A stretch of 64,000 bases of DNA from a virus (lineage: Duplodnaviria > Heunggongvirae > Uroviricota > Caudoviricetes), in the IMG/VR virus record IMGVR_UViG_3300006226_001702, positions 11,064 to 75,063 of that record; one strand, 5' to 3'. The notes under the pieces are model-generated. The model ran no database searches. It worked only from the letters and a program-made list of their open reading frames with translations, and had not been told where the DNA came from. Position numbers and translations under genes: made by a program. The stretch's first letter is position 1. Each line of letters starts with the position of its first letter. This document shows, piece by piece, positions 12,945-48,618 of this stretch.

Positions 12945-12946
12945 TA

Positions 12947-15674: not shown

Positions 15675-16086
15675 TTTCTTCCTTCAATTTGTTAATAACT
15701 TCTAATAAAATCTCTGGGTGCACTTTTTCATAAAAAGTTTGTTGCTTTAAAAAGTCACAAGCTTCTTCATATGTAAAAGTGTAAGGTTGATTATTTAGAA
15801 ATTCATACAGTTTCTCAAACGGCATGTAATTGTACTTACATAACTCAGAGGCTGCTTTAATCCTCAATTTACAATTTTCATTTTTAGTTAACTCAAATAT
15901 GCTCTGTTCTCTCTCAATAAATTTGTAAGCCATATCTGAAATTAACATAGTTTCGGATAATCTTGGTCCCCCATATTGCTCACACATTTTGATGATATCT
16001 TTTAATGCTTTGCCATATTCTTCAAAGTTATTACGATGAGAATTCAAAAGTGAGGCTTCTCTAAGTTTTAAGTCTTTTAATGTCAT
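15601..16086 (-). CDS. hypothetical protein
   Basis: 161-aa ORF; first gene of minus block with AACTAAATAATATG start context; 3' end overlaps the GNAT ORF by 74 nt. Confidence 0.45.
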   Translation of the reverse strand: MTLKDLKLREASLLNSHRNNFEEYGKALKDIIKMCEQYGGPRLSETMLISDMAYKFIEREQSIFELTKNENCKLRIKAASELCKYNYMPFEKLYEFLNNQPYTFTYEEACDFLKQQTFYEKVHPEILLEVINKLKEENEVREDSSDGHRTEVLGEGTPANI

Positions 16087-16111
16087 ATTATTTAGTTTTC
16101 TACTAACTATT

Positions 16112-28117: not shown

Positions 28118-29487
28118 TATTTGTTAGCCTTATAGTCATCACATCTACATGGGTCATGTCCACAATCTTCACAATCTTTTCCAGTTGGCTTTTTAGCTTT
28201 TTTCTCTTTTTTGCCAGCTTTGTAATATTCTTCATATTCCTTACATCTACAAGGACTGTGTCCACAATTATCACATTCTTTACTTTCAGTAAGAGGTGCA
28301 GTTGCTACTTGATTGGCTGCCTGATTTGCAACTTTCGCTGCTTTTTTAGCTTCCTTAGCAGCTTCTTTTGCATTTTTTTCTGCAATTAAAGCAAATAATT
28401 TATCGCATGCTTCTTGCCTAGCAACTGGGTCTTTAATTAAACAGAATTGATGAGCTATTCCTTCGTAATCAATATTCTTACGAGGACCGCCTTCTCTTAA
28501 ACTATCATTATATATCTCATTAAAGTTTATGCTTTCATTATATTTTTGCTCATTATCAAAATTAGCTGCATATGTACATTTAATATTTGCACCTGGTCTA
28601 CCACCAATGTATCTTAAAGCTTTTTGTATTTTGTCTTTATTATCTGGGTCTTTTATGTTGCCTGCAAATTCTGGGCCTCTTGTGCTTCCATCAACAAAAA
28701 CTTGGAAAGTGTTTGCTCGCTTAACAGATGCCTTTTTCGGTATAATGTCTTCTTTTAATTGATTTTGATTTATGATTTTTTCTAAGAGTTTATCTTGTTT
28801 TTCAGTAAGTTTACCAACAATTTTTGCGCTGTCTTCACCCTCGCCTGTTGCCTTTGCAAGAAGTCCCAATGCTTTTGAAACTGATGCATCATCAACTGGA
28901 CTAAATGGTGCTGTTAAGTCTCTACCACCAGCCTTTGCTTTGAAAATTCCAAATTCATGAAGTTGTCTCTCACCTAATGGAGTTAAACCTTCTTCAGCAG
29001 CAGCTGCATCCATTTCTGACCAGTCTTCTTCGTCATCATCGTAATATTCAAATTCGGCTTCGTCATCTTCATCATCCCATTCAAAATCACCATCATGACC
29101 ACCAGTTGCAAAATACTCTTCTTCGTCTTCATCAGTTGGGTAATCTCCACCCATTTCATCGAAGTCATCATCGTCATCAAATGGGCCAATTCCTACACCA
29201 TTCTGTCTATCATCGTAAATTTCTGGATATAAGTCAGCATCAGATTCTTCATCATCTTCGTCATCACCATAACCACGATAAGACTGCTCACTCTCATAAG
29301 CTGCTCTTTGGTCTGGGTTCATCCATCCTATATCGCTTGCGTCATAAGACATTTCATCATCATCTTCAAATAATTCAGGTGCATCAAATTCTTTTGCTGC
29401 GGAAGGAACGTCATAAGTTTCTAACTCATCTTCGAAGGTCATATCGTCAAGGGCAGGATCCCAATCTTCTTTTAAAGGTTTCATCAT
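28117..29487 (-). CDS. highly acidic protein with two C-terminal CxxCGHxPCRC repeats
   Basis: N-terminal 170 aa very rich in D/E/Y; C-terminus CDNCGHSPCRC ... CEDCGHDPCRC. Confidence 0.5.
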   Translation of the reverse strand: MMKPLKEDWDPALDDMTFEDELETYDVPSAAKEFDAPELFEDDDEMSYDASDIGWMNPDQRAAYESEQSYRGYGDDEDDEESDADLYPEIYDDRQNGVGIGPFDDDDDFDEMGGDYPTDEDEEEYFATGGHDGDFEWDDEDDEAEFEYYDDDEEDWSEMDAAAAEEGLTPLGERQLHEFGIFKAKAGGRDLTAPFSPVDDASVSKALGLLAKATGEGEDSAKIVGKLTEKQDKLLEKIINQNQLKEDIIPKKASVKRANTFQVFVDGSTRGPEFAGNIKDPDNKDKIQKALRYIGGRPGANIKCTYAANFDNEQKYNESINFNEIYNDSLREGGPRKNIDYEGIAHQFCLIKDPVARQEACDKLFALIAEKNAKEAAKEAKKAAKVANQAANQVATAPLTESKECDNCGHSPCRCKEYEEYYKAGKKEKKAKKPTGKDCEDCGHDPCRCDDYKANK

Positions 29488-29496
29488 ATTATTTAG

Positions 29497-30393
29497 TTAT
29501 GATTGTTGTTTTTCTTTCTTTAATATGTCAAGCTGCTCTTTTGTCATTATTTTGTTAGATCTAGCAAATCTAACACCCGCTTTATATGTAGTTGGGCAAT
29601 AATCAGGATGTCCGGCAAATGAGCACCAATTACAATGATATGCCATACTTGCATTTTGTTCTAAATCTAAATTGTCCCAGTCCTCATTTTCGGATGCTTT
29701 AATTAATGAAGTGTATTCACTAATCATATCTTTAACTTGATCTTCAGTAAAAATTAGCTGCTTAAAAGTTTTGAGCATAAACTTTCTAGTTGATTCAATA
29801 TCATCAACATCTTCATCTTTTAATCCAGCCATTGGAAAAAATGCATAAGTTTTAATTTTATCATATTTAGTTTTGAGCTTATTTTTAATCATATAAGCAT
29901 ACAACATTAATTGATTTTCATAACCATTTATTTTAGCAGTACTACCAGTTTTAAAGTCGATAATTACAGCTTCTTTTGTGACTTCATTAATCAATAATAA
30001 GTCCATTGCCCCAACTACTGATTTCTTATTTATTGCACTATATTCCCAAGACTCTTTAGTTACAGTAAAACCTTGCTCTTCGTATGGTTTAATTATTTCA
30101 TTCCAAAACAAATAAAACCTGGGAATTGCTTTAATGACTGGATATTTTTCTTGATCAAAATCATATCCTTCTAATATTGTTGCTGCATGATTTTTTAAGT
30201 CTTCTAAAGTTTTAGTTGAATCCATAAATTCAGCAATTTGGTGGAATGCTAAACCTTTTTCTTGAACATCAATATCTTTGCCAATTACTACCAATTGCCA
30301 AATGTAAGTTAACAGATACTTTGTTCTACAACTGTTGTAAGCTCCAAACCTAGATGCACTCCACCTGGGATTCTGTTTTTCAGATTTTAACAT
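29497..30393 (-). CDS. Cas4/RecB-like PD-(D/E)xK exonuclease with Fe-S cysteine cluster
   Basis: IIDFK (D/ExK), QLMLY (QxxxY), and one N-terminal Cys plus CNWCSFAGHPDYC. Confidence 0.65.
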   Translation of the reverse strand: MLKSEKQNPRWSASRFGAYNSCRTKYLLTYIWQLVVIGKDIDVQEKGLAFHQIAEFMDSTKTLEDLKNHAATILEGYDFDQEKYPVIKAIPRFYLFWNEIIKPYEEQGFTVTKESWEYSAINKKSVVGAMDLLLINEVTKEAVIIDFKTGSTAKINGYENQLMLYAYMIKNKLKTKYDKIKTYAFFPMAGLKDEDVDDIESTRKFMLKTFKQLIFTEDQVKDMISEYTSLIKASENEDWDNLDLEQNASMAYHCNWCSFAGHPDYCPTTYKAGVRFARSNKIMTKEQLDILKKEKQQS

Positions 30394-32916: not shown

Positions 32917-33067
32917 TTAATTCCAACCATTCATCATCAGAAAATAAAAGTTCCTCTCTTCTTTCTTCTTTTCTTTTAGCATCATATCTCCTGGCAGCCT
33001 CAAAAAGAGCCTGCCATTCAGGAGTTGTTTTGTCAATTTCAAACATCAGTCGCCATTTTTTATGCAC
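32879..33067 (-). CDS. hypothetical protein
   Basis: 62-aa ORF. Confidence 0.3.
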   Translation of the reverse strand: MHKKWRLMFEIDKTTPEWQALFEAARRYDAKRKEERREELLFSDDEWLELNGTRLATQTVRE

Positions 33068-34356
33068 TTAAACACTGGGAAGCGAAGAGACTTAACACCA
33101 GCTGCATTTTGACTTTCCTCGAAATAAACTATTTCAGCAACTCTTCCTTTGAGATTGTTTCTGTTTTTCCAGAACTCATCTCTCTGTGCATCTGAAAAGC
33201 CGCTTCCGCATTTTACGATATTCCCTTTGTAACCAAGTTCAAAAGCTCCGAGGCGACCTTTGTGTCTGCCACGACCTTCTTGAAAACCAAGGATTTGCAA
33301 ATCAATATCAAAAAAGCTCTTCACTTTTGCACAAGCTATAGTGCGGTCCCATTCATAAAAACCATCCATGTCTTTTACGATGACGCCTTCCTTTTCGTTT
33401 TCCTTTGCCCACTCGAGGCCTTTTTCAATTTGACCAACATCATCACCGATGTAAAGACAAGGAAGGGGAAACAAGTAATCATATTTTGCAACACCGGGAC
33501 TTGAAGTTAAAGTTGCCTGGTATGCAGAATAACGCTCGCTGTATGTCATTGTGCATTTGCGATTTTCCCACTGCTTGAGCGGCATGTAATCATAAACGGC
33601 GAGACATACTTCCTTCGAACCACCTTTGCGAGTTGAATTGGAAACAAGTTTGTACTGCTGTTTGGAATCCATCTCCATAAAACCCACCGGCATCCTTTCA
33701 CCATCGAGCACAACATCTTGACCTTTATAAGCCTCAAGCACATCCTGTTCGATAAGCGGGAAGTTTCCAGTTTGGTCTTTTCCAGAGCGGGACAACACAG
33801 TAATTTTGTTTCCCTTTTTGAATATCGTCATTCGGAATCCGTCAAGCTTAACTTGATAACCGAACTTAGTTCCAACATAATAGTCGGGATTGGAAAAATA
33901 GTCAGCACAGAGCATCACTTCATGAATTGGAATAAAGTCATCACCAAAAACAGCGTTACAAGTTGTGCGGCCAATTCCCAGGCCCTTATCCCATGATTTT
34001 GAAGCAATGCGAAGAATTCCAATTTCAGTCTGTTCATCATATTGAGAAGCAAAGGCTTGGATAACTGCGGCATCAATATCACGCCCAGTGTTATTTTCAT
34101 TGAGGTACTCTAACATATCAATGAGGCCCCAATCTGCCCAGTCAATTGAATCAATGGCAGCAAGCTTAATCTGCTTTTGGAGCTTTCGTTCTTTGAGACC
34201 AGTTACTATGAGATTATCAAAATACCATTGAAGAGTGTGAATGAAAGCGCCGTCATCCTTGTACTTTCTGAGGACATCTTTCTTCGCATTCGTTCCTTGT
34301 GTGTTCTGAATTTCATAGAACATATCAATAACTTTTGAAGTGTGCTTATTTCCCAT
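33046..34356 (-). CDS. ATP-dependent DNA ligase
   Basis: Nucleotidyltransferase motif I KxDGxR: YQVKLDGFRMTIF. Confidence 0.75.
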   Translation of the reverse strand: MGNKHTSKVIDMFYEIQNTQGTNAKKDVLRKYKDDGAFIHTLQWYFDNLIVTGLKERKLQKQIKLAAIDSIDWADWGLIDMLEYLNENNTGRDIDAAVIQAFASQYDEQTEIGILRIASKSWDKGLGIGRTTCNAVFGDDFIPIHEVMLCADYFSNPDYYVGTKFGYQVKLDGFRMTIFKKGNKITVLSRSGKDQTGNFPLIEQDVLEAYKGQDVVLDGERMPVGFMEMDSKQQYKLVSNSTRKGGSKEVCLAVYDYMPLKQWENRKCTMTYSERYSAYQATLTSSPGVAKYDYLFPLPCLYIGDDVGQIEKGLEWAKENEKEGVIVKDMDGFYEWDRTIACAKVKSFFDIDLQILGFQEGRGRHKGRLGAFELGYKGNIVKCGSGFSDAQRDEFWKNRNNLKGRVAEIVYFEESQNAAGVKSLRFPVFKCIKNGD

Positions 34357-35174: not shown

Positions 35175-35786
35175 CTATGAAAGAAAAGCGGGTGGTCGAG
35201 CTAACTTTTCTAATAAGTTATTGTCTCGATCAAATTTTAAGTGTATGTATTTTCTGCTTGCTAAATAGTCTGCTAAATGTAACATTTGTTCATCGAATTC
35301 TTGTGGTGTGGGAGTATTACCTGATTTGTCTCTTGCTGCGTCCCATCTTCCCATGTGGCTTGCGCATAATCTTGCTTCTTCAGATAGACCAACTTCATCT
35401 AATTTGTCGGCTATATCTTTGGCATGATGTTTTGATGTATATTCACTTTCATCAGTTGCATATTTGTAAGCATCATGAGCAATTGCTGCAATTACGAGTG
35501 AGTCTTGATTTAGTTGTGGGAATGCATCACATATCGTCATTACGAATTTGACTACAGCTTTAGTGTGTCGTGATAGACCAAAATCTCCTTGTGAGTATTC
35601 TGGGTGGTATTTTCCAGTAGAAGAAGCTTGACCTGCAATATTTTTATATGCAGCTGTTCTCAAAACGTTCTCTAATTTTGCTCTTTTTTCTTTTGATTGA
35701 ATTAAGTCTAATTCTTTCATGTAAATTTTAACATTTGGTGACTCAAGCATGAGTGCTTCTTCATAGATTCTCTGGAACGTTTTCAT
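35175..35786 (-). CDS. HD-domain phosphohydrolase (paralog A)
   Basis: SSTGKYHPEY...LSRHTKAV...AAIAHDAYKY (H, HD, D metal ligands); N-terminal MKTFQRIY. Confidence 0.65.
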   Translation of the reverse strand: MKTFQRIYEEALMLESPNVKIYMKELDLIQSKEKRAKLENVLRTAAYKNIAGQASSTGKYHPEYSQGDFGLSRHTKAVVKFVMTICDAFPQLNQDSLVIAAIAHDAYKYATDESEYTSKHHAKDIADKLDEVGLSEEARLCASHMGRWDAARDKSGNTPTPQEFDEQMLHLADYLASRKYIHLKFDRDNNLLEKLARPPAFLS

Positions 35787-35813
35787 ATTAGTTAGTAGAC
35801 TTAACTAAATAAT

Positions 35814-38800
35814 ATGAACTTTTTAAATGAGCTCGTTTCACTATCTAGAGATGAAATGGTCGATGAATATAATAAGACTAATAGAGATCCCATAGAAAAT
35901 GTTAAATTTGATAAAAGGGCAGCAAGTAGTTTTTCAGCCTCAAGAAAAGCTACTAGACATAAAATAACGGATAAACTCTTTCCAGATGGTTTTAATGAGT
36001 TTGATTTGCATAGTGCAGGAATTGCTATTCAAAGATTGATGAACACTGGGGAATTTGACCCAGATTACGATATAAAAGATGATATTGAAAAACTAACTGG
36101 CGCAGATAGAGACTTAATTAAAGCAGTTTTAGTCAAATCACAATATCATATTGATAAAGAAAACGTTAAGGGAAGTGTTGAACGAAATTATCCACATCTT
36201 GACATATCACAATTTGATGATATTTACGAAGTCTTTACTGATATAATTGGCCCAAACCATGGTGATACATCTTTATATGGAATTGAAGCCGAAATTGAAT
36301 TGTTGACTTGCATTGCTTTAAGAAAGATGGGATATCATACATCAAATGTTTATGACAACTTTTATTCAGAAGCTAGTGAGGCTCAAATTAAGGAGACTTT
36401 AATTAAAGTGGCTAAAGCATATTATCAAAGCAAACAGCATAAATTAGAAGAAAGTTTCAAACTTAGAATTCAGAACTTGAGGGAAGGTAAAACTTCCACA
36501 ATGCATTTAGAAGATTCAATAATTCGTGGTCCAGCGACTATGAATAAAATGATTGAATTTTTTAATTATCTCTATGGATTATTAGAAGGAACTTATACTG
36601 GAGATAATCCACCAATTTCACAAAAGATTGATGGTGGTCCAGTTATCTTTATGTGGTCGTCATTCCCAGGTCTTCCAGGCCCAGGATGTGCGGGCAAAGG
36701 ACTCCTTAATAAGACTCCAGTTCATTACACAACTCATGAACAAATAGATGCTGATGACAAACCACAAGGTTATAAAGACAAATTACATTACGTTTTGAAA
36801 TTAGCACAAGCTGTTAAAATCCCAGCAAATCAAGTTTGGATGGGCGACATGCTCTTCTCAAAAGGTGACGCCAAAACTTATGAGCAAGACGGTGAGAAAT
36901 TCGTTTATGTTAAGCCTGTAACTATTGCGTATGCAGCTCCATTTGATTCAGATATTGGTAAGAAGTTTTTGAATTGTGAAGTTGGAGCTGTTTTTCATAC
37001 GAGATTTAGAGATAACTTAACTAACAAGACTAATGATATTTCAATTTCAGAATTGGGAGATATTCCAGATTGGGCATTCGTTAAAGATGCTCAAATAAAT
37101 AACTTAAGTGGTAAGGTATCATTCAATAAGCAAGAATCCGCTTTCGTAAAACGTGAGATTGATAAACTTAAAAAGCTTGTAAACGAGCTAAACAATAATG
37201 AAGCATATCATGAGTTAACTAAAAATCAGAAGTTTATTGACTCATACGTTACAACATTACAGAATAATAAGATTGATAGACAAAGTAAAATTGACCCAAA
37301 TGAATTCGTAAATGAATTAGTGAGTTGGATTGGCACTAAAATGGATAATAATAGATCCAAATTGGATAGCCTCAAAACAGAAGCAGGCCGAATTAAAAAG
37401 GCAGCCTCATTAGATACGACTCAAAAAGAGTTAAATTATCTCGTAACTAACAATAAAGATGTAATTCAAAAAATAGCAACTTGTCTCAAACTTGCAACTG
37501 ACATTAAAGAGTACATGGTTGAAAAGATAAACGAAGCAGATGAATGGATATCTCAAATAGAAACTAAAGACGGTTTTTCTAAAACTGGTGGGGAAGGTTT
37601 TATCGCATCAGATGTTGATGGTGATTTCGTTAAGCTTGTAGACAGAGCAGCATTCACTTATTTTGCTCGCTCACCTGACATCATCAAAGGCGGGGCACAT
37701 TCAGCTTCTCGTGAAAACACTGAGAAGAAAACTGCGGTAGTAAACTTTGGCAGACTTAATCCTGTTTCAATTGGCCACAGAAAAATGGCAGAAGCAATTA
37801 GAGCTAAAGCAGATGAACTTGGTGGTGAAGCATTCATCTATCTTTCTCATTCATATGATGGTGTTGACTCTAAGAAGTTCAAGAAAGGAACAACTAAGAA
37901 TCCGCTCAAGTATGAAGACAAGATAACTTTCGTACAGGATGCTATTGGTGATATTGTAACAGTTGTAAATAGCAAAGCAGACCAAGCATTTGCTGTTTAT
38001 GGTGAACTCTATCGAAAAGGATTTACTGACCTCGTTATAATTGCTGGTGAAGATAGAATTGAAGTCTTTGAAAGAGATGCTCAGAACCACAATGGAAAGT
38101 ATGATGCTGAACCAATGAGATGTTTTGATTTTGATAGCATTAAAGCGGTGAATGCTGGTGTTAGAGATGAAGATAGTGATGATGAAGCTGAGCAGGCAAG
38201 TGCATCATTGTTACGTAGAGCTGTTAGTGATAATGATTTTGAAACTTTTGAGAAGTTTGTTGGTGCAAAGTCATATGCTCAAGAAATGTTTGATCTTCTT
38301 AAGTATGAGATGGGTTTATCTGAAAAATTAAAAGAAAATGAAGAACTAACAATAGATGAACTCATAAATAGATTAGACAATGAAGATAATAATATTGAAA
38401 TAGAAATCGATGTGAATCCTGATCCAAATGAAGAAACAAATTTTAATATAATAGAAGAACCTGAAAATAAAAATGAAGTAAATGATTCTACTGAAAATAG
38501 AGAAAGTTCTCCAGAGGAAATTAGTAGTGAAATAAATTCAGCAATTGATTCCTATATGAATGAATCAATAAATATTTTTAATAAAATATTTTATAAAAGT
38601 TTAAAAGAAGAGACAAAAAGAGGAAAAACTTATACAGTAAAAGGTAAAGAAAATATAAAGAAAGTTTTATTTAATATAAAGAAAAGACACAAAGATTTAA
38701 CTTTTTATAATGCAAAGCATCTTGGTGGCGGTAAGTGGGAAATAAAAACATCATATGCTAAGAGTAGATCAAACTTAAGTAATCGTGAGATTGAATGGAA

Positions 38801-40409
38801 TGATTTTGATATTGAGGAAGAAGCTATTTCTGAAAAACAAATAAAAGGAAGCTTATTAAATAAAATAGCTTTATATTTAGAAAATAAAATAAATTATAAA
38901 GACACACCCGAGAAAGAATATATAAGATTTAGTTTTAAAATTAGCCCAAAAGGTTCAGGACAATTAAAAATCGGATTTAATTTTAAAGGAAGTGGTAATA
39001 AAGCTTTAATTGGAAATAGAATAAATAAAGATAAAATAAAAGATCTAATTGATGAAATTAATATCTCACAAGATAACGAAAAAGTTATTTGTACTGGTAA
39101 TATAACAAATTTTATTGTTTATCAAAAAGGTGATACTCAAATTGATTTTAAATATCATCCATCAGACCAAGCTATAAATGAATCAGGGGCTTCAAAAATA
39201 GTAAATGAAACTGATATTCAAGAAGCTTTATTTGCTTATATTTTAAGTAGATATAATGAAGTAAGAAGTGGTAAATTGAATATTGAAAATATTTTAAATT
39301 TTAATAATTTTGATAATATTTTAATAGATCATTTTAATTCTGAAGAAGAATTTAATAATTTCTTTGCACCAAAATCAACAACTGGTAAAGAATTTAGTCA
39401 ATATGGTACTGACGGTAAAAATTGGGTGTTCTTTTTCAATACATTAATTAATGAAATAAAAAGTGATGAATTTTTGAATAAAATAAAAGATTGCTATAAT
39501 AATAAAATAAAAAATCAAATAGATTTAAATCAATATAAAGTTTATCATCCTAATTTAAAAAACTCTGAAAATCAAAAACATGATTTTTTAATTAGACAAT
39601 TTGGTGCTACTCAAGGATCATTTTTTAAAGATACTATTAATCCAACAGATGTAATTTTGTATAAAGATTTAAAAGAATTTGATTTATTATATAAAAGTTT
39701 TGATAATGTCGATGAATATAAAAAAAATTGGAATAAACATATAGAAAATTTAAATATTATAGGATTATCATTAAAGAAAAATACGAAAAGTAATTTAAAA
39801 ATATATAGAACAAATCCTGAACCAATAGGCACGAGTAAAGCATTTGATGAGAAAAGATTAGTTTGTTTTAGATTTAATAATGAAAATCCAGAGGTTTGTA
39901 CAGTAAAAATAAATGAAAAAACTATAAATAAAAATTATAGTTTGATGAGAAATAAAAATGATATTCCTACAGGAATTATGATTGAAATACCTGTTGATGA
40001 AAAACATATTCATATGAATGCAATAGGCTTAACATTTAGAAGTTCTTTAGGAAATGACAAATTAAAACCTGGTATTAAAGTAGGTCTTGATTTTAGACAA
40101 AAAGGTGGTAGTCCTGAGGCACAATTAGGAAGAGCTTCTGATTCTTTAGAATATCTATTTAAAAATAATAGAAAAGCTTATGATGAGTGTTCTACACTAA
40201 TATCAGTAGATGATAATGGTTGGAATAATATTAAAAATAATTTTATAAAAAATTTATCATTATTAGGAGATAAAAATTTAAAATTAAACATCACAAAACT
40301 TTTAGCTTTTGGATGTAAATATGCAATTTTATTTGTTGATAGCAATGGAAATATAGATAAAAATAGACCAAGTGAATCACTTGCTGTTGATTATATAAAA
40401 ATATCATAA
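35814..40409 (+). CDS. giant multidomain protein: Rnl1-like RNA ligase domain + HxGH nucleotidyltransferase domain + Asn/Lys/Ile-rich low-complexity C-terminal half
   Basis: Motif I KIDGG; motif IV/V EGFIASDVDGDFVKLVDR (cf. T4 Rnl1 EGYVAVMKDGSHFKIKSDW); GRLNPVSIGH = (T/H)xGH adenylyl/cytidylyltransferase signature; sharp composition shift near 38330. Confidence 0.5.
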   Translation: MNFLNELVSLSRDEMVDEYNKTNRDPIENVKFDKRAASSFSASRKATRHKITDKLFPDGFNEFDLHSAGIAIQRLMNTGEFDPDYDIKDDIEKLTGADRDLIKAVLVKSQYHIDKENVKGSVERNYPHLDISQFDDIYEVFTDIIGPNHGDTSLYGIEAEIELLTCIALRKMGYHTSNVYDNFYSEASEAQIKETLIKVAKAYYQSKQHKLEESFKLRIQNLREGKTSTMHLEDSIIRGPATMNKMIEFFNYLYGLLEGTYTGDNPPISQKIDGGPVIFMWSSFPGLPGPGCAGKGLLNKTPVHYTTHEQIDADDKPQGYKDKLHYVLKLAQAVKIPANQVWMGDMLFSKGDAKTYEQDGEKFVYVKPVTIAYAAPFDSDIGKKFLNCEVGAVFHTRFRDNLTNKTNDISISELGDIPDWAFVKDAQINNLSGKVSFNKQESAFVKREIDKLKKLVNELNNNEAYHELTKNQKFIDSYVTTLQNNKIDRQSKIDPNEFVNELVSWIGTKMDNNRSKLDSLKTEAGRIKKAASLDTTQKELNYLVTNNKDVIQKIATCLKLATDIKEYMVEKINEADEWISQIETKDGFSKTGGEGFIASDVDGDFVKLVDRAAFTYFARSPDIIKGGAHSASRENTEKKTAVVNFGRLNPVSIGHRKMAEAIRAKADELGGEAFIYLSHSYDGVDSKKFKKGTTKNPLKYEDKITFVQDAIGDIVTVVNSKADQAFAVYGELYRKGFTDLVIIAGEDRIEVFERDAQNHNGKYDAEPMRCFDFDSIKAVNAGVRDEDSDDEAEQASASLLRRAVSDNDFETFEKFVGAKSYAQEMFDLLKYEMGLSEKLKENEELTIDELINRLDNEDNNIEIEIDVNPDPNEETNFNIIEEPENKNEVNDSTENRESSPEEISSEINSAIDSYMNESINIFNKIFYKSLKEETKRGKTYTVKGKENIKKVLFNIKKRHKDLTFYNAKHLGGGKWEIKTSYAKSRSNLSNREIEWNDFDIEEEAISEKQIKGSLLNKIALYLENKINYKDTPEKEYIRFSFKISPKGSGQLKIGFNFKGSGNKALIGNRINKDKIKDLIDEINISQDNEKVICTGNITNFIVYQKGDTQIDFKYHPSDQAINESGASKIVNETDIQEALFAYILSRYNEVRSGKLNIENILNFNNFDNILIDHFNSEEEFNNFFAPKSTTGKEFSQYGTDGKNWVFFFNTLINEIKSDEFLNKIKDCYNNKIKNQIDLNQYKVYHPNLKNSENQKHDFLIRQFGATQGSFFKDTINPTDVILYKDLKEFDLLYKSFDNVDEYKKNWNKHIENLNIIGLSLKKNTKSNLKIYRTNPEPIGTSKAFDEKRLVCFRFNNENPEVCTVKINEKTINKNYSLMRNKNDIPTGIMIEIPVDEKHIHMNAIGLTFRSSLGNDKLKPGIKVGLDFRQKGGSPEAQLGRASDSLEYLFKNNRKAYDECSTLISVDDNGWNNIKNNFIKNLSLLGDKNLKLNITKLLAFGCKYAILFVDSNGNIDKNRPSESLAVDYIKIS

Positions 40410-40419: not shown

Positions 40420-41106
40420 ATGAATAAATTAAAAGAAGGATATCCAATTTTTCCAAAAAATTCATCTATAGGTGGTTGGGATAAATATGAAAAAGAAACT
40501 ATTTATGACCCAATAAGAAAAAAAGTTAGTTGGATAATAGATAAACTTGATTACACTGGAGATGAGAGTGACCTTAGGAAATTACTTCATAAATATTTCT
40601 TGCCTCAAAGTAGAAAATCTTCAATATGGGATGAAAGACTAGCTGAATTTGACCTCACAAGAGAAGATGTGAGCAAAGTTAATTATGATTATAGTGTTTG
40701 GCAAGCTAAACAAAAAGATAAAATAGAGGAAAGCAACATGAATAAATTATTTGAAGAAGTTTATAAAAAATCACTAAAAGAAGAAATAGAAATATGCGAT
40801 AGTTGTGGTGACCCAACCTCTGATAATTATAGTCAAGATGAAGGAAAGGTTCTTTGTCATGATTGTGCTGTTGAAGAAGATTATGAAAATGACCCAGGTT
40901 GGATTAGTTGTGAATTATGCGGACAAGATTTTGATTCAACTGAAGAAGGTGAAGAATGCGGTCATATACCAGATTCTAAATATTGGCTTTGTGATGAATG
41001 TTACAATGATGAAGATAATTGGTGCCCAGAATGCAATGGTATTATAGGCCTCGAAGTTGAGAATGAAGATGGGGAATGTTCAGGCTGTGGTTGCCCATTA
41101 GAATAA
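40420..41106 (+). CDS. Cys-rich multi-zinc-finger protein
   Basis: C-terminal CDSCG...CHDCA...CELCG...CGH...CDECY...CPECNG...CSGCGC; internal MNKLFEEVYKKSLKEE motif. Confidence 0.5.
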   Translation: MNKLKEGYPIFPKNSSIGGWDKYEKETIYDPIRKKVSWIIDKLDYTGDESDLRKLLHKYFLPQSRKSSIWDERLAEFDLTREDVSKVNYDYSVWQAKQKDKIEESNMNKLFEEVYKKSLKEEIEICDSCGDPTSDNYSQDEGKVLCHDCAVEEDYENDPGWISCELCGQDFDSTEEGEECGHIPDSKYWLCDECYNDEDNWCPECNGIIGLEVENEDGECSGCGCPLE

Positions 41107-41107: not shown

Positions 41108-41272
41108 ATGAAATCATTTGATGAGATTTATATAATAAACAAAATAGAAGACGATTATAAAGCAGGTGAGATATCAAAAGAAGAAGCTATTAAAAGCCTC
41201 AGAAAAATTTGGGGACAATTAGGTTATTCTGTTGATAATGAAAATACTGAAATATATTTAGATGCTCTTTAA
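41108..41272 (+). CDS. small protein starting MKSFDEIY
   Basis: 54-aa ORF below track cutoff; N-terminus carries the recurrent motif. Confidence 0.3.
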   Translation: MKSFDEIYIINKIEDDYKAGEISKEEAIKSLRKIWGQLGYSVDNENTEIYLDAL

Positions 41273-41808
41273 TCAATATAATGAAAATAGTATCTAGGTT
41301 TTCCTTCATGTGGGACTTCAACTCGAATCATAACAGTATGATTTTCCCCATCTAATTCCACATCACTAGAGAAAGTTACATACTTCTCTATATCAGGTTT
41401 TTTGAATTGTTTGTAATTTGGTTTCTGATACTCAAAATCCATATCACCAATTATGTCATCAAGTTCTACAACTATAGATAGGACATCATACCAATAATTT
41501 TCGTCATCAGCACGAGATTTGAACACATTAGCGGCCCCCTTATCACCACCTCTCATTGCTTCAGCAATAGAAAAGAAAAGCTCTTTGAATCCTCGCTCAG
41601 TTATTTTAATATCACGACCTTCTTTAGTTTTGAAAGTTCTATCGAGAAAATTACGCTTAAAATAGTTTTGGGCAAACTTATACACATCTCTAACAGGCTT
41701 TTTGTAATCACCTTCGCCTTCTAAAGATTTAGCATACACTCTTTCAAATAGGCTATTCACGTGATTTGAAGTAATCCTTAATGTCGCTAATTTCTCTTTG
41801 AACTCCAA
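41269..41808 (-). CDS. hypothetical protein
   Basis: 179-aa ORF; contains SLFERVYAKSLEGE. Confidence 0.45.
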   Translation of the reverse strand: MEFKEKLATLRITSNHVNSLFERVYAKSLEGEGDYKKPVRDVYKFAQNYFKRNFLDRTFKTKEGRDIKITERGFKELFFSIAEAMRGGDKGAANVFKSRADDENYWYDVLSIVVELDDIIGDMDFEYQKPNYKQFKKPDIEKYVTFSSDVELDGENHTVMIRVEVPHEGKPRYYFHYID

Positions 41809-41941
41809 TTAGAGCATTAAACACATCAGAATTAGCATCAATATCAGTGAGTCGTTGCATTAACTTCAATGCATCCATAACATTCTTTGAAGCACCATTT
41901 ATGCTTGTAATAATATCGCCAATGATTATATCGTCATCCAT
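41753..41941 (-). CDS. small hypothetical protein
   Basis: 62-aa ORF with ACTAATTATTATG start context. Confidence 0.35.
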   Translation of the reverse strand: MDDDIIIGDIITSINGASKNVMDALKLMQRLTDIDANSDVFNALIGVQREISDIKDYFKSRE

Positions 41942-41966
41942 AATAATTAGTAACTCACTAAATAAT

Positions 41967-42578
41967 ATGGATAAATCTACTTATATACTACGACAATCAC
42001 TTGGCTGGTTGGGAGCAGCACTTCCCTTCATGTGTCTCATCTTTGGGGCACTTGGAATGTACAATGAACCAACATGGTTTCACACTATGTCACAAACATT
42101 TTACACTCCAGCAATAACTCCATTCGTTGGTGTTCTTTGGGCAGTTGGAATCTTCCTCATTGCTTATGGAGCAGCAAATCTTTATGACTATTGGGGTGAC
42201 AGAGTAGTCAACATTGCCTCTGGTATCTTTGCTATTGGCGTTGCTGTTTTCCCATGTCAAACGGCTCTATTCACACACGTTGGAATGTTCATGTTACCAG
42301 TTGGCACATCAGCAATCCTTCACTATATATCAGCAGGCGGGCTATTCATTATGCTTGCCATCAACATTCTTTGGCTCTTTAGAAAAGGCAAATCAGAAGT
42401 TCATAATAGAATCTATCTAATATGTGGGCTCGGCATTGTGTTCGGGTTCCTCCTCATTGGCGCAACTGTTCTATTTGGCTTGTGGGGCTTTTTGGGTTGG
42501 ATTGCTGAAGCAATTATGTTGCTATGTTTCTCCTTCGCTTGGTTGGTGAAAGGAAAAGCATTCAAGTTAATATCATAG
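41967..42578 (+). CDS. polytopic membrane protein
   Basis: Track ORF trimmed to MDKSTYIL (CACTAAATAATATG context); about 6 hydrophobic helices. Confidence 0.5.
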   Translation: MDKSTYILRQSLGWLGAALPFMCLIFGALGMYNEPTWFHTMSQTFYTPAITPFVGVLWAVGIFLIAYGAANLYDYWGDRVVNIASGIFAIGVAVFPCQTALFTHVGMFMLPVGTSAILHYISAGGLFIMLAINILWLFRKGKSEVHNRIYLICGLGIVFGFLLIGATVLFGLWGFLGWIAEAIMLLCFSFAWLVKGKAFKLIS

Positions 42579-42972: not shown

Positions 42973-42987
42973 AACTTACTAATTATT

Positions 42988-45975
42988 ATGTCTGATGGAA
43001 TTAGCCAAATAGTTGGCAGTGTTAGCGACGGAGCCCAACAAGTAACTGGTGGGCTTAATGCTGTTAATGCTACACTTGGCGCAATCAATGAGAAAATAGA
43101 AGGTCTCCATGAAACTAAAACTGAACAACTACAGGTCGAGGTAACAGCTCTTCCTGATTTTGTTCGTGACATTTATGACAAAGTTGCGCAAATAACTGAT
43201 GGCTTAACTGATAGTAAAGATATCCTTTCAGACATTCGTGACACTGGAGATGAACCATTAGAAGTTGGTGAAGGCCCAATTTACATTGGCGAGACTTTAG
43301 ATAGATTATTAGGTGACCAATCAATACTTGTCACTTCAATCAATGATATCCTTCAAAACTTAACTGGTGAACAAGCTGTAGCAGGAAATGCAACTGGGCC
43401 ATCGTTGGACTTTCAAGATGAGGGTTGGCAATCATTAGCTCAAACTATAGTTGCATTCGTTGATACGGCATCAGCAGCAGGCGCATCTGACATTCAGGCA
43501 GGGCTAACTGCCATTCAAAATGTGTCGCAATTCATTGATGAAGCTCAAGCTATTTTTGCTGATTTTACTGTTCCGGGTTCAGTGTTAGAACTTTCCACAT
43601 TCATTGGCCAAATTGAACCATTACTAAGTTCCATTCAAGAAGTAGCTGATTTTGCTGCAACTATTCCTGACTTTGAAGTTCCATCATTTGACAATGTGTC
43701 TCTGTTGTTTCAATCACTACAGACGATTACGACAGAAGCAAGCAATATATCAGCCATCTCAAGTGAGGCAATAGAAGGTTTGGGTTCAATTGACACATTC
43801 GTTGAAGCTGTACAACTTATTGCTAATGAACTACAAGATGTGGCTATTCCAGACATTGATGTTAGTGGACTATTTAGCGGGATAAATGAAGCAGCTGAAC
43901 TTGCTGCCAATATGAACTCACTTATATCAGATGCAAACAACACAGTAACTCAACTTGGCGGTTTTGTAACTGCCGTTAACGAAATAAGCGAACAATTTAT
44001 AGACTACTCAGATGCTGGTGCTGCCTCTACAATGATGGCTTCATTCATAACTGACTTGTCAACAGCTATAACAAGCATATCGGCAACTGGAGAATTAGCT
44101 GCATCATCAGTAGACAATCTTGCGGCTATCGCTGACTTTGTTGGTGGTATGAACCAACTATTTGGCACTTTAGCAATAGTTGAAGTTAGTGATGCTGTTG
44201 CAGTGTCTGATGAGATTCGTTCATTCTTCACTGACATCGCCGGCACATTTGAGTCGCTCAATGCTATTCAAGATCTAGTCACGGACGCAAGTGGAACTTT
44301 ACAGAACATTTCATCTTTCATTGTTGGAGTAGCCGAACTAACTGGTGCTGCCGATACATTGGAATTAGACGACTTTACTGAGTCAATGGTTGGCATTGCT
44401 AACTCATTGACATCATTAAGTACAACTCTATCAGCTCTTCAAGAAATCGATGAAACTCAAATAGAAGAAGCCGGCTCAATTCTCACTGAGGTTGCAGGAC
44501 TATTCACAACAGTTAGCGGACTATCATTAGCAGCAGAAGAAGCTCTATCATCAGTGCCTGCTTTAACAGATGCAGCTAGCCAAATAGCTGCTGTTTCAAC
44601 ATCACTCACTACGATGTTAAGTGCTGTTGATATGCTAAATGAAAGTGAGATAGATAGTGGCTCATTAGAACAGATAGCAAGCTTAATCACAACTTTCCAA
44701 TCACTGTCAATGGTAGCAGCAGAAAGCTTAAGTACCATGTCAGATTTAGACGACTTTGCAACAACAGCTACTGCCACATTAGCTCCGCTTCTTGGAGTTG
44801 TTGACTTACTAAATGACACTACAGACATACCAGCCAATCGCATTGGCGAACTTCAACAAATCATAGCATCGCTTGGCGAGCTTGGAGAAGTTGCAACACT
44901 ATCAGCAGCTCCATTAGATGACTTGAGTTCATTCTCAGAGCAAGCACAAGCAGCATTGGGCCCGCTACTTAATGTACTTCCAATAGTTAACGAACTATCA
45001 GACATAGTTCAAGAAGTGGACTTGAGCCAATTGAACAGGATAGGCGACATTTTTGGCAGGCTTTCAGCATTGGGAGAAGATACGACTCTAACTGGCAACA
45101 TCGAGAATTTAGCCGACATCACCTCATCAGTCAACACATCAATGGCCTCAGTAGCAGAAGCATTCAGTGCGGTGCAAGAACTTTCAATGTTCAGCGAGCA
45201 AGTCAACATGGGCGGTATCGCTGGAATGTTTGAGCAGTTGGGTGAGCTTGGAGATGTTGCATCCGAAAGCATGAACAGCATTGGCGATGTGAATGCAGTA
45301 GCAACTGAAATAGCTCAGGCTTTCCAATCAATGGGCGCAATCACTGACTCACTAGAAGTAGTTGGTGAACTCACTGAGCAGTCAGGCGTCATAATTGATG
45401 GCTTCAAAATGATGGATGATATGATGGATGTGCTTGGCAATCTTGCCGGAAAGAGTGAGATGCTTGGCGGAGTTGCTGGCTCATTGTCAAACATTGAACA
45501 GTTTACTGCATTGGGTGATTTGTTTGGCCAACTCGCATTGAACCAAGATGCATTAGCAGATAGCAAATCACTCACACAGGATATGATGGGCGCCATTCAG
45601 AACTTGATAGTCGTTGGCGAATTTGCTGATGAATTGGGCGACTTCAAATTGAACCTTGAAGAGAACTTAATCACACCGTTGTCTGGATTAGCAGAAGGGG
45701 CTGAGAACCTTCGCAACATTGCAAGTAGTGTGCGCGAGATCAATTCAGAATTGACTAAATTATCAAGTGATAATGCAGATACGTTAAAGTCACTGAACGT
45801 TGAAGATAGTGATAGCGTGTTTGGTTCACGAGGTGATAGTTTTGGAATGGAGCCTCAACAGCAGCAGAATGAGCAGCAAGGGAATGACCCACAGTTGGCA
45901 GCTATATTGCAGGAGTTGAGTGCGATTAAAGAAGTTTTAAGTAAGGAAGAAAGTTCCTCATGGTTGGAGAATTAA
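42988..45975 (+). CDS. tape-measure-like or internal virion protein (Ala/Ser/Leu/Thr-rich, 995 aa)
   Basis: Low-complexity helical composition with recurring LGELGEVA-like segments and a Gln-rich C-terminus; call rests on size and composition. Confidence 0.35.
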   Translation: MSDGISQIVGSVSDGAQQVTGGLNAVNATLGAINEKIEGLHETKTEQLQVEVTALPDFVRDIYDKVAQITDGLTDSKDILSDIRDTGDEPLEVGEGPIYIGETLDRLLGDQSILVTSINDILQNLTGEQAVAGNATGPSLDFQDEGWQSLAQTIVAFVDTASAAGASDIQAGLTAIQNVSQFIDEAQAIFADFTVPGSVLELSTFIGQIEPLLSSIQEVADFAATIPDFEVPSFDNVSLLFQSLQTITTEASNISAISSEAIEGLGSIDTFVEAVQLIANELQDVAIPDIDVSGLFSGINEAAELAANMNSLISDANNTVTQLGGFVTAVNEISEQFIDYSDAGAASTMMASFITDLSTAITSISATGELAASSVDNLAAIADFVGGMNQLFGTLAIVEVSDAVAVSDEIRSFFTDIAGTFESLNAIQDLVTDASGTLQNISSFIVGVAELTGAADTLELDDFTESMVGIANSLTSLSTTLSALQEIDETQIEEAGSILTEVAGLFTTVSGLSLAAEEALSSVPALTDAASQIAAVSTSLTTMLSAVDMLNESEIDSGSLEQIASLITTFQSLSMVAAESLSTMSDLDDFATTATATLAPLLGVVDLLNDTTDIPANRIGELQQIIASLGELGEVATLSAAPLDDLSSFSEQAQAALGPLLNVLPIVNELSDIVQEVDLSQLNRIGDIFGRLSALGEDTTLTGNIENLADITSSVNTSMASVAEAFSAVQELSMFSEQVNMGGIAGMFEQLGELGDVASESMNSIGDVNAVATEIAQAFQSMGAITDSLEVVGELTEQSGVIIDGFKMMDDMMDVLGNLAGKSEMLGGVAGSLSNIEQFTALGDLFGQLALNQDALADSKSLTQDMMGAIQNLIVVGEFADELGDFKLNLEENLITPLSGLAEGAENLRNIASSVREINSELTKLSSDNADTLKSLNVEDSDSVFGSRGDSFGMEPQQQQNEQQGNDPQLAAILQELSAIKEVLSKEESSSWLEN

Positions 45976-47704: not shown

Positions 47705-48292
47705 TTAGTCCACAATTATTTGGTTCAAATCATCGAACTTAATTGTGATTACCTTTTTAGCACAAAGATAATCAGCATATGCAACAATATAGTGCTCGGG
47801 TTTAGTGGGTGGCTTGCCTAACTCTTTTCCATTCTTATCAGTGTGCCAACGACTCATGTGCGTGTCAACTATATCGGCTATCAATGGCCAATAAATAGAA
47901 TCAGCAAACTTGCTTCTAATAGCATCACCCATCATAATAGCATGTTCATTGTGAATGTACTTCTGATCTTTTTCAGTGTACTTTTTCATATCGTGAAGAA
48001 GAGCACCAATGTAAATGATGTCCCATTCTATGTCATTGTCATACTTTGGGTCTTGCTGTAACATTAGTTCAGTCAATTTACAAACGGCTCTCGTGTGTCT
48101 TAAAAGACCACCCACCCCGTTTGACCAAGGTGGGTGATATTTCCCGCTGCTACTTGCCGGCGCATCACAAATGTAATCAGAACATTCCATTAGAAGTGCT
48201 TTACAATCGATGCGTAGATATTCTGTTTTGATTTTTTCAATTTCAGTCTTAAAACAGTTTAGTATTCTTCTTCCCATAAGTCTGGATGGCAA
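47705..48292 (-). CDS. HD-domain phosphohydrolase (paralog B), candidate RNA 3'-end healing enzyme
   Basis: SSSGKYHPPWS...LLRHTRAV...ALLHDMKKY; paralogous to 35175..35786. Confidence 0.65.
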   Translation of the reverse strand: MPSRLMGRRILNCFKTEIEKIKTEYLRIDCKALLMECSDYICDAPASSSGKYHPPWSNGVGGLLRHTRAVCKLTELMLQQDPKYDNDIEWDIIYIGALLHDMKKYTEKDQKYIHNEHAIMMGDAIRSKFADSIYWPLIADIVDTHMSRWHTDKNGKELGKPPTKPEHYIVAYADYLCAKKVITIKFDDLNQIIVD

Positions 48293-48591
48293 CCAATTGG
48301 TCCGTCATTTGTAGATAATTCTTGATCTTCAAATGGGAAGACACCATTTCTTGCCGCTATCTCCTTCTCGCTTCTCAACTTCATCCAAGTTGGTTTTGGT
48401 GCAATCACTTTGAAACAACATATTGGTACGTTGTTCAAATGGAGATATTCAGCTGCTGCTCTATAATCCTCAGGAAAACGAGATACATATATTTGATAGT
48501 TCAACCTAACGTCTTCTGAGAAATAAAAATATACAATTTCATCTGCGTATTCTAGGTAAACAGACTCTTCATTAAGTCGTTCTATAATCAT
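48259..48591 (-). CDS. hypothetical protein
   Basis: 110-aa ORF within the RNA-repair operon. Confidence 0.4.
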   Translation of the reverse strand: MIIERLNEESVYLEYADEIVYFYFSEDVRLNYQIYVSRFPEDYRAAAEYLHLNNVPICCFKVIAPKPTWMKLRSEKEIAARNGVFPFEDQELSTNDGPIGCHPDLWEEEY

Positions 48592-48618
48592 TTTAGGCTC
48601 CTATTCATTTAGTTCAAT

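Follow-up and report, generated by a model that had tools for sequence, protein, structure and literature searches.

Related phage proteins

Synechococcus phage S-PM2 encodes p138 (S-PM2d138, UniProt A0A0M6VVW4), in which T4-like gene cluster 71 (T4-GC71), a DUF6267 protein, is fused to a cytidyltransferase domain (T4-GC190); at least three other proteins in the viral predicted-structure library BFVD carry the same fusion. Seven phages, T4-like and others, have the two genes as neighbours; the genes are adjacent or near-adjacent in DLP_6, HTVC008M, S-SZBM1, P-SSM4, S-RIM8, and Melnitz-2, and the T4-GC71/T4-GC190 pair is found in cyanomyoviruses, pelagiphage HTVC008M, Methylophilales phage Melnitz-2, and Stenotrophomonas phage DLP_6. 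The pairing of the DUF6267 and cytidyltransferase genes is conserved among phages, some of which carry them fused, and is already known, though unstudied; no biochemical characterisation of S-PM2 p138, T4-GC71, or T4-GC190 was found in the literature searched. A preliminary description of the locus reported below had overlooked this precedent.

Two other comparisons come from outside this family. The internal proteins of T4 and its Alt protein carry the capsid-targeting sequence MKTYQEFIAE and are cleaved by the gp21 protease at L/I-x-E. Polyvalent proteins, which occur in phages and conjugative elements, resemble the protein described here in combining several unrelated enzymatic domains in one large polypeptide that may be delivered during invasion and processed; their catalogue includes neither ligase-like nor HxGH domains (Iyer et al. 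2017, PMC5512222). Lastly, a 334-kb metagenomic jumbo phage contig (JGI 3300042605) encodes P0121, a 1123-aa protein read as one ORF.

Organisation of the gene

The locus lies in a window of 64 kb, the whole stretch of phage DNA that was analysed, and contains the following features.

35814..40409, plus strand: whole gene, one uninterrupted ATG-to-stop ORF of 1531 aa
35814..36497, plus strand: orphan N-terminal extension, residues 1–228, relatives not detectable
36498..37700, plus strand: DUF6267 domain (cyanophage T4-GC71), residues 229–629, with a predicted ligase-superfamily-like nucleotidyltransferase fold
37713..38357, plus strand: nucleotidyltransferase domain of the phage "cytidyltransferase" family (T4-GC190), residues 634–848 (phrog_3041, 1e-35)
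37767..37778, plus strand: S652-I-G-H, family variant of the HxGH nucleotide-binding motif (alignment A8)
38199..38216, plus strand: S796-A-S-L-L-R, ISST-type second nucleotide-binding motif, S and R invariant in A8
38358..38555, plus strand: acidic low-complexity linker, residues 849–914 (SEG 847–865 and 893–908; entropy 3.03 bits)
38556..38612, plus strand: junction peptide M915-NESINI-FNKIFYKSLKE-E933, resembling a capsid-targeting signal that leads into an L-x-E cleavage motif; putative cut after E932
38613..40406, plus strand: C-terminal orphan domain(s), residues 934–1531, the core well conserved from about 1117 (39162) to the end

The ORF represents a single genuine gene encoding a modular protein, and its extent was given correctly in the preliminary description, as were KIDGG at residue 271 (36624), EGFIAS at 594 (37593), GRLNPVSIGH at 646 (37749), the internal Met915 at 38556, and FNKIFYKSLKEE at residue 922 (38577). 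The modules run from the orphan extension through DUF6267, the nucleotidyltransferase, and the acidic linker to the targeting-like peptide (915–933) and a conserved C-terminal domain whose fold is not assignable; the domain memberships are established. Searches of Pfam, PHROG, PDB, and phage tblastn with residues 1–228 returned zero matches, and this extension is missing from both P0121 and stand-alone DUF6267 proteins. The DUF6267 domain opens with M-H-L-E-D, canonical for the family. S-PM2 p138 matches in both domains and in their order (phmmer 6e-41 over residues 258–815; Foldseek TM 0.81, E 3e-23), and it and the T4-GC71/T4-GC190 proteins share invariant residues with the 1531-aa protein. 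However, proteins of the S-PM2 p138 type are 590–730 aa or two separate genes, are only 25–30% identical to the 1531-aa protein, and lack its 228-aa N-terminal extension, its acidic linker with internal targeting-like peptide, and its 600-aa tail.

The nucleotidyltransferase domain also matches phrog_395 at 9e-27 and, by tblastn, 505 phage records; PF01467 scores 16.7 bits, under its cut-off, and matches to the NMNAT, FAD synthetase, and TmcAL families all fall under their thresholds. F-x-R-x-N-P-x-x-x-G-H is invariant in alignment A8, and S796-A-S-L-L-R aligns with the equivalent motif of MJ0951. The family-wide motif is [T/S/H]-x-G-H; the original call of an HxGH nucleotidyltransferase was right about the type of enzyme domain but not about the literal motif, which reads S-I-G-H here.

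A targeting-like peptide and proposed function

The best reading overall, in which we place about even confidence, is that this modular product of a single gene is delivered by the virion, is probably proteolytically processed, and acts on nucleic-acid ends or nucleotides, a predicted function. The protein would be translated as one chain, the most confident part of the proposal. With less confidence, the targeting-like peptide would lead to loading into the prohead and the prohead protease may cut after SLKE, and the enzyme half and the tail could then enter the host along with the DNA. The least confident step is that in the host, early in infection, both nucleotidyl-transfer domains may act with the neighbouring HD phosphohydrolase on nucleic-acid ends (activation or sealing of RNA or DNA ends) or on a nucleotide cofactor.

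Peptides of the FNKIFYKSLKE type occur in seven proteins of the window, six by a strict pattern (0 in 2000 shuffles) and one as an N-terminal variant. Their Ser codons differ between copies (AGT, TCA, TCT), which places the conservation at the level of the peptide. P0121 has F-L-R-E-A at the corresponding position, L-[KR]-E being kept in both homologues. Two peptide carriers and the divergent HD gene lie close by.

40420..41106, plus strand: downstream gene, peptide copy MNKLFEEVYKKSLKEE at residue 107, then a Cys-rich zinc-ribbon-like region
41269..41808, minus strand: LPD3-domain (polyvalent-protein-associated) protein with the same peptide motif near its N-terminus (PF18798, 6e-11)
35175..35786, minus strand: divergent neighbour, HD-domain phosphohydrolase starting MKTFQRIYEEA (PF01966, 7e-10; phrog_5889)

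As in T4, several unrelated proteins of one phage have in common a short peptide in which aromatic or hydrophobic residues precede L-[KR]-E, and one carrier starts MKTFQRIYEEA, comparable to MKTYQEFIAE. Among nine stand-alone cytidyltransferases, seven open with M-[KR]-x-[FI]-x-x-[FI]-[IL]-x-E-A, again like the T4 targeting sequence, and two proteomic studies detected T4-GC190 proteins in S-SM1 and S-SZBM1 virions (PMC3037559, PMC9146016). Whereas the T4 signal is N-terminal, the peptide here is longer (F-x-x-[IV]-Y-x-x-S-L-x-E) and is internal in five of the seven carriers. The phage itself is unlike T4, having a family A polymerase, and packaging and cleavage are here putative. Published work ties LPD3 and ART-PolyVal domains to proteins that are delivered on invasion; both are encoded near the 1531-aa ORF, the ART-PolyVal protein at 12935-14329, directly downstream of motif-carrying ORF 10176-12239. 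The 1531-aa ORF, however, holds none of the hallmark domains of the polyvalent class, and a built-in metallopeptidase is absent.

It is also conceivable, though rather unlikely, that the protein is a single cytoplasmic multidomain enzyme, neither packaged nor cut, whose peptide is a docking motif through which several phage proteins bind the same partner, for instance a chaperone, a clamp-like hub, or a factor for import into a compartment. The mostly internal position of the peptide would fit such a role, as would the surrounding replication and repair genes, the lack of a recognisable prohead protease gene within the 64-kb window, and the one virion proteome checked, in which the DUF6267 protein S-SZBM1_141 was not reported. 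The resemblance of the peptide to the T4 targeting sequence, L-x-E included, the similar N-terminal peptides of homologous cytidyltransferases found in virions, and the LPD3 protein among the carriers argue instead for packaging.

A role at nucleic-acid ends, for the virion-delivered protein that we favour, is suggested by gene neighbourhoods in two genomes. The HD gene, 27 bp from the 35814 ORF, has a paralogue (E 9e-24) in the RNA-repair cassette of the window at 47.7–49.8 kb (RNA ligase, P-loop kinase, and HD), and an ATP-dependent DNA ligase gene lies 1.5 kb upstream. Rnl1, metallophosphoesterase, and Macro genes lie no more than 7 kb from P0121.

Relationship of DUF6267 to ligases

The N-terminal half was at first taken for an Rnl1-like RNA ligase. 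Membership of that family is rejected, as Pfam, hhalign, and Foldseek all gave no significant ligase match; no sequence-profile method links DUF6267 to ligases. Three features of the domain are considered below.

36624..36638, plus strand: candidate motif I, K271-I-D-G-G, with the candidate nucleotidyl-accepting lysine; K, D, and G invariant (30 sequences)
37128..37532, plus strand: helical insertion of about 135 residues (439–573) between candidate motifs IIIa and IV
37593..37646, plus strand: candidate motifs IV and V, E594-G-F-I-A-S-D-V-D-G-D-F-V-K607-L-V-D-R611; E, G, K, and R invariant (30 sequences)

DUF6267 is ligase-like, in that it is predicted to have a ligase-type lysine-nucleotidyltransferase fold, interrupted by the helical insertion. 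Its structural model is confident and places the candidate motifs on β-strands, ordered I, III, IIIa, IV, V, with K271-I-D-G-G directly after strand 40–42 and motifs IV and V on strands 368–371 and 377–380. In 30 DUF6267 sequences, K271, D273, G274, G344, D345, E594, G595, K607, and R611 are invariant. The first out-of-family Foldseek matches in two libraries were T4 Rnl1 and phage 133 RnlA, neither significant. Compared with the ATP-dependent RNA ligases Naegleria NgrRnl (5cot), T. brucei REL1 (1xdn), and T4 Rnl1 (2c5u), to which sequence and profile similarity is non-significant, DUF6267 is set apart by its insertion, by the absence of OB, N-terminal, and Rnl1 C-terminal domains, and by a motif V with a single lysine rather than two. 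These non-significant links and the atypical motif V, together with large domain parts missing from short cyanophage versions, are consistent with an improbable alternative in which DUF6267 has a structural or binding role, the KxDG...EG...K pattern and fold likeness being convergent or vestigial and the cytidyltransferase domain alone catalytic.

The C-terminal tail and continuity of the ORF

Among 1.84 billion representatives the tail has a single relative, P0121. There an acidic linker comes after the DUF6267 domain (about 39% identical), then an L-R-E junction and a tail matching that of the 1531-aa protein (40% identity, E 7e-70); P0121 lacks the cytidyltransferase domain. The DUF6267-linker-tail fusion is kept as one ORF in this second, distant jumbo phage. 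The tail has zero Pfam or PHROG matches, and its AF2 model is unusable (pLDDT 39).

The AT-rich shift noted previously is real: GC3 falls from 0.20–0.30 to 0.05–0.15 from about residue 800 (~38,200), just upstream of the acidic linker, and GC is 0.21 over 39,001–40,000 vs about 0.35 window-wide. From 38330 onward the protein is indeed rich in N, K, and I (N+K+I+Y 0.31–0.44), but the tail is not of low complexity as had been supposed, given its alignment with the P0121 tail: of roughly 600 tail residues SEG masks only about 40, the 40-residue entropy stands at 3.63 bits vs 3.72–3.79 for the enzyme domains, and meaningful tandem repeats were not found in it. The sole truly low-complexity stretch of the protein is the acidic linker, at about 847–908.

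The preliminary description suggested two genes, fused or read through. Origin from once-separate genes is reasonable, with residues 230 and 915 being vestigial start-like Mets where composition shifts, but a read-through artefact is rejected because the fusion is old and conserved. A stop codon near 38560 in relatives would have counted against the preliminary description; P0121, the sole tail-bearing relative, is one ORF including the tail, its parts are therefore not separated by a stop there, and this check does not refute the description.

We consider it doubtful that an internal start at Met915 (38556) yields the tail as a protein of its own, with the MNESINIFNKIFYKSLKEE signal at its head, besides or instead of the full-length chain. 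Met or GTG stands 1–7 residues ahead of the peptide in five of seven carriers, in ORF 40420-41106 an AGAGGA-like ribosome-binding site precedes the internal Met at the peptide copy, and composition changes near the junction; on the other hand, Met915 is preceded by neither a ribosome-binding site nor a start motif, and P0121 has no Met at the equivalent site, yet is one ORF with the same linker. An assembly chimera, read-through, or decaying pseudogene joining unrelated genes is highly improbable, for although GC3 drops sharply and the gene collection lacks an exact copy of the protein, the independent P0121 contig, from another sample, has the same DUF6267-linker-tail order and GC3 drop without stops, and the ORF is intact over 4.6 kb of 21–35% GC DNA, in which stop codons are frequent.

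The start of the gene carries a motif common to 14 gene starts in the window (14 sites vs 0.8 expected).

35804..35816, plus strand: start-abutting motif ACTAAATAAT, directly against the ATG, promoter- or leader-like
35784-35796, minus strand: divergent copy of the motif, paired with the copy at 35804..35816

Architecture and start of the ORF

The ORF at 35814..40409 (+) is uninterrupted and encodes 1531 amino acids, as given in the preliminary description, and the motifs named there lie where they were placed (KIDGG at 271, EGFIAS...VKLVDR at 594-611, and GRLNPVSIGH at 646, with Met915 at 38556 and FNKIFYKSLKEE at residue 922). Its modules, by residue, are as follows:

1-228, N-terminal extension
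229-629, DUF6267 domain
634-848, cytidyltransferase domain
~847-908, acidic linker
915-933, junction peptide
934-1531, tail

The described shift in composition is real, third-position GC (GC3) falling from 0.20-0.30 to 0.05-0.15 beyond approximately residue 800. The tail is not the low-complexity sequence it was taken for: SEG covers roughly 40 of its 600 residues and no more, its local entropy of 3.63 bits comes close to the 3.72-3.79 of the enzyme domains, no real tandem repeats were found in it, and the acidic linker is the only low-complexity stretch of the ORF. The exact protein is absent from the gene-position index, and IMG/VR yielded no close relative of the full-length protein.

The ATG is adjoined by ACTAAATAAT, and the ORF opens a transcription-unit-like block. 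Many genes have the motif ACTAA[AC]TA[AT]T directly against their ATG (14 sites, with 0.8 expected from shuffling), often as back-to-back divergent copies approximately 20-30 bp apart. The sites include:

396-408 (-)
7329-7341 (-)
16084-16096 (-) and 16102-16114 (+)
29485-29497 (-)
35784-35796 (-) and 35804-35816 (+)
41939-41951 (-) and 41957-41969 (+)
42978-42990 (+)

This motif looks like a phage promoter yielding leaderless or nearly leaderless mRNAs; other genes of the window have ordinary GGAG-type ribosome-binding sites. A promoter and terminator scan within the ORF gave nothing above chance. Separately, the ribosome-binding-site-like AGGGAAGG lies about 13 nt ahead of Met230 (window 36470-36503), the residue that matches the start of stand-alone DUF6267 proteins (M-H-L-E-D), and may be the vestige of a formerly separate gene start or an internal start.

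The DUF6267 domain

Homology ties residues 229-629 to phage proteins some 400 amino acids long, which Pfam groups as DUF6267 (PF19782) and which cyanophage annotation lists as T4-like gene cluster 71 (T4-GC71). Searches with phmmer matched Stenotrophomonas phage DLP_6 gp066 (2e-38) and S-PM2 p138 (6e-41), tblastn of the region matched 86 phage records, and one query alone yielded over 8000 DUF6267 clusters. Pfam's own DUF6267 HMM (gathering score 27 bits) matches 29 of the 30 aligned sequences, and hmmscan with it did not report the ORF, either because the ORF is divergent or because the match was lost to speed filters. Despite this silence, a home-made profile built from 28 stand-alone members only scored the ORF at 204.5 bits over almost its whole length (profile 9-396 of 407, residues 220-616), so the ORF is a divergent but firm member of the family.

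The preliminary description had assigned this region to Rnl1-like RNA ligases. Membership in Rnl1 (PF09511) did not hold up: there is no Pfam match, and hhalign against an Rnl1 homologue gave a probability of 0.6%. The T4 Rnl1 family has a C-terminal tRNA-binding domain, whereas the DUF6267 domain ends 20 residues past motif V, and where the covalent nucleotidyltransferase superfamily has K-x-K as motif V, DUF6267 has one lysine. Motif I reads K271-I-D-G, with K, D, and G invariant in 30 sequences; further candidates for motifs III, IIIa, IV, and V (G344-D345, P368/T370/Y373, E594-G595, and K607...R611) show no variation either and map to beta-strands of the model. The DUF6267 profile found nothing in the PDB, hhalign of DUF6267 against the Rnl1 homologue and the window's own DNA ligase was not significant, and none of the 30 members has even a weak Pfam ligase match. 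A link between DUF6267 and RNA/DNA ligases at the level of the fold, new here, is proposed as a lead.

The homologues of S-RIM8 (L011 454-1350) and P-SSM4 (L009 345-1271) are only about 300 amino acids long; they are without large internal parts, including much of the helical insertion, and retain the N-terminal HLEHLED, the KWDG, and the C-terminal blocks.

The cytidyltransferase domain and its pairing with DUF6267

Residues 634-848 match the PHROG families annotated as cytidyltransferase (phrog_3041, 1e-35; phrog_395, 9e-27), which correspond to cyanophage cluster T4-GC190 and occur in 505 phage records, among them cyanomyoviruses, pelagiphage, and Rak2-like and other jumbo phages. The nucleotidyltransferase assignment of the preliminary description therefore stands, while its literal HxGH does not, as the ORF reads S652-I-G-H. 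The family alignment shows F-x-R-x-N-P-x-x-x-G-H, in which T, S, or H takes the place of the first His of HxGH; this and a second, ISST-type motif, S-A-S-x-x-R (S796-A-S-L-L-R in the ORF), are invariant. PF01467 scored the ORF at 16.7 bits, under its 21-bit cut-off. Weak, sub-threshold likeness was seen to NMN adenylyltransferases, FAD synthetase, and the TmcAL-like MJ0951. The NCBIfam/TIGRFAM cut-offs for NMN/NaMN adenylyltransferase (NadD/NadR/NadM) were far from reached (best E-value of a family member 8e-8), and the ORF's own top match was FAD synthetase, scoring 24 bits where the cut-off is 461. One paper calls the function of the cyanophage cytidyltransferase unclear, and our literature search found no paper on the function of DUF6267 or the T4-GC190 family.

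In marine T4-like cyanophages and pelagiphages, the genes for the two domains form a core pair. The genes are adjacent, or one to two small genes apart, in DLP_6, HTVC008M, S-SZBM1, P-SSM4, S-RIM8, and Melnitz-2. The pairing had been described as having no obvious precedent, but S-PM2 p138 (591 aa) consists of DUF6267 and the same cytidyltransferase domain, and at least three further fusions of this kind, 599-728 aa long, are in BFVD. The two enzyme domains, like the fusion between them, are already catalogued, and the ORF supplies a third independent fusion partner. What is new is the four-module architecture with a two-member orphan tail family, together with a recurring internal targeting-like peptide that ties in with T4-GC190 N-terminal peptides and virion proteomics.

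The tail and its single relative

An exhaustive HMMER search with residues 915-1531 against 1.84 billion representatives found exactly one relative, P0121 (E-value 7e-70, 40% identity), a 1123-aa protein on a 334-kb metagenomic phage contig (L003; JGI 3300042605). In P0121, DUF6267 is followed by an acidic linker and then by the same tail; the cytidyltransferase domain is absent. The preliminary description had looked to relatives for a stop codon between the parts; P0121 has none there, and the GC3 of its gene falls at the same boundary as in the ORF. The tail is therefore a conserved domain, most clearly so between approximately residue 1117 and the C-terminus, and the fusion is old.

The tail matched nothing in Pfam, PHROGs, or phage genomes, and Pfam and PHROGs were equally silent for the P0121 tail. 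It showed no similarity to the long C-terminal regions of stand-alone cytidyltransferases, nor to S-PM2d140. Viral and metagenome contigs were scanned with the alignment, and two back-translated peptide patterns were tried as well; no further relatives came to light, and the two 10-residue matches obtained lie outside any ORF and are due to chance. The predicted structure of the tail has a pLDDT of 39. A reading of the tail motifs NPTD...SLKK as a PD-(D/E)xK nuclease was dropped, as no result supported it. As a side observation, GC3 in both tail-encoding regions (window 38200-40409; L003 11200-13372) is 0.05-0.15, below the remaining gene and genome; the tail proteins are only 40% identical, yet the low-GC3 bias has persisted over this long divergence.

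The junction peptide

The pattern F-[NE]-x-[IV]-[YF]-x-x-S-L-[KRE]-[EG] has six matches within real ORFs of the window and none in 2000 residue shuffles, a significance somewhat overstated since the pattern was built from its own instances. The copies are:

11118 (+), strict pattern
27919 (-), strict pattern
28524 (-), strict pattern
38577 (+), strict pattern
40750 (+), strict pattern
41748 (-), strict pattern
35777 (-), seventh, N-terminal variant MKTFQRIYEEALMLE, at the start of the divergent HD neighbour

Carriers of F-x-x-[IV]-Y-x-x-S-L-[KR]-E are seven otherwise unrelated ORFs, with the peptide internal in five. Its Ser codons differ between copies (AGT, TCA, TCT), so conservation is at the peptide level. 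In two carriers, the ORF and ORF 10176-12239, an acidic linker lies ahead of it, and at the equivalent place P0121 reads ...IVKRFLRE-A.

The junction peptide resembles the T4 capsid-targeting sequence MKTYQEFIAE, in which the residues at positions 4 and 7 send the protein to the prohead core, and the site of prohead-protease cleavage is specified by positions 8 and 10, I-x-E (PMC8442874, PMC9026906). In the ORF (F922...Y927...L930-K-E932), aromatic or hydrophobic targeting-like positions are likewise followed by an (L/I)-x-E pattern; the T4 signal is N-terminal, however, whereas this copy begins at residue 922 of 1531. The recurring peptide may label proteins for capsid targeting or mark a protease site. 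Of the nine stand-alone T4-GC190 proteins read, seven also start in a T4-targeting-like manner (compare M-K-x-F-x-x-F-[IL]-x-E-A). The N-termini recorded are:

MKKFSAFLKEA
MKKFSAFLTEA
MKNFHQFITEA
MRFRQFIIEA
MKKFSEIIEA
MKNIKDILEA
MKTLKELLRK (weaker fit)

Stand-alone cytidyltransferase genes whose products begin in this way lie at the following loci:

L009 1258-2409
L010 1159-2481
L008 3926-5014
L011 1352-2509
L013 1562-3514
L002 6709-8877

The cytidyltransferase has been found by mass spectrometry in S-SM1 and S-SZBM1 virions (PMC3037559, PMC9146016). The targeting-like N-termini of the stand-alone enzymes fit this detection and agree with both proteomes; our literature search found no paper joining the two.

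Possible delivery in the virion, and alternatives

The ORF offers three leads: the link between DUF6267 and the ligase fold, a third independent fusion partner, and the tie of the enzyme pair to capsid packaging through targeting-like peptides. On the reading that we favour, at about even odds, the ORF is translated as one chain, which the junction peptide would address to the prohead and a glutamate-specific prohead protease would cut after SLKE. The enzyme half and the tail would enter the host along with the DNA, where the ligase-like and HxGH domains would transfer nucleotidyl groups to nucleic-acid ends or a nucleotide cofactor, perhaps with the participation of the HD protein that carries the N-terminal peptide copy. 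A wider proposal, which we offer tentatively and consider unlikely, is that the gene pair in general is a virion-delivered, two-step nucleotidyl-transfer system, an unrecognised ligase-superfamily enzyme with an adenylyltransferase. Arriving with the DNA ahead of any phage gene expression, it would mend or alter the ends of nucleic acids or restore a nucleotide cofactor. The ORF would be its polyprotein form, cut at the internal peptide, which would serve this phage as a general address label for a set of ejected proteins. If true, a mechanism would be assigned to a core cyanophage gene pair, and a non-T4 phage would be loading head enzymes by a T4-style address peptide, even an internal one. 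If packaging is wrong, the ORF is a larger fusion of catalogued, uncharacterised domains.

Against packaging, the peptide is internal in the ORF, the phage is not T4-like, no prohead protease or head-morphogenesis genes were identified within the 64-kb window, and DUF6267 was not reported in the S-SZBM1 virion. A cytoplasmic enzyme for which the recurring peptide is a docking motif is a possible reading, if a doubtful one. Internal initiation at Met915 would make the tail a separate product and is improbable; no ribosome-binding site or start motif precedes this Met, and P0121 is without it, from which translation as one chain is inferred. We likewise see little likelihood in a non-catalytic DUF6267 domain. 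The shared tail, missing stop, and GC3 drop of P0121 make an artefact, whether assembly chimera or read-through, very unlikely.

Genomic neighbourhood

The divergent partner of the ORF, 27 bp away, is an HD phosphohydrolase, and its paralogue (E-value 9e-24) closes a classical RNA-repair cassette. Directly upstream of the cassette, ORF 49750-50478 overlaps the ligase start and is without a family match. Two genes downstream of the ORF also encode the peptide, one for a zinc-ribbon protein, the other for an LPD3 protein. The features concerned are:

47705-49799 (-), RNA-repair cassette: RNA ligase PF09414 (49122-49799), P-loop AAA_33 kinase (48619-49131), a small ORF, and HD phosphohydrolase (47705-48292)
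33046-34356, ATP-dependent DNA ligase
41269-41808 (-), LPD3 protein (PF18798), a separate gene
12935-14329 (+), ART-PolyVal, a "polyvalent protein"-type ADP-ribosyltransferase (PF18760), ~21 kb upstream of the ORF

Residues 142-316 of the ART-PolyVal protein have a 43%-identical homologue adjoining P0121 (L003 14099-15013), followed by a Macro-domain gene; Rnl1, metallophosphoesterase, and Macro genes lie near P0121. None of the hallmark domains of polyvalent proteins (metallopeptidase, LPDs, ART, MuF, and others) was found inside the ORF, and the list of Iyer et al. (2017) includes no ligase-like or HxGH domains.

No close relative was found among isolated phages. The phage records matched by the DNA polymerase (at 25% identity) and by the HD protein (~30%) come mostly from Firmicutes phages. 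The replication and nucleotide genes at 18841-21802 (-), 23429-24079 (-), 473-1483 (+), and 29497-30393 (-) are those of a divergent phage; they comprise a family A DNA polymerase apparently split in two ORFs, ThyX, an N6/N4 DNA methylase, and a PD-(D/E)xK nuclease, and their best phage matches, only ~25% identical, lean to Clostridium and Bacillus phages, a hint of a Firmicutes host.
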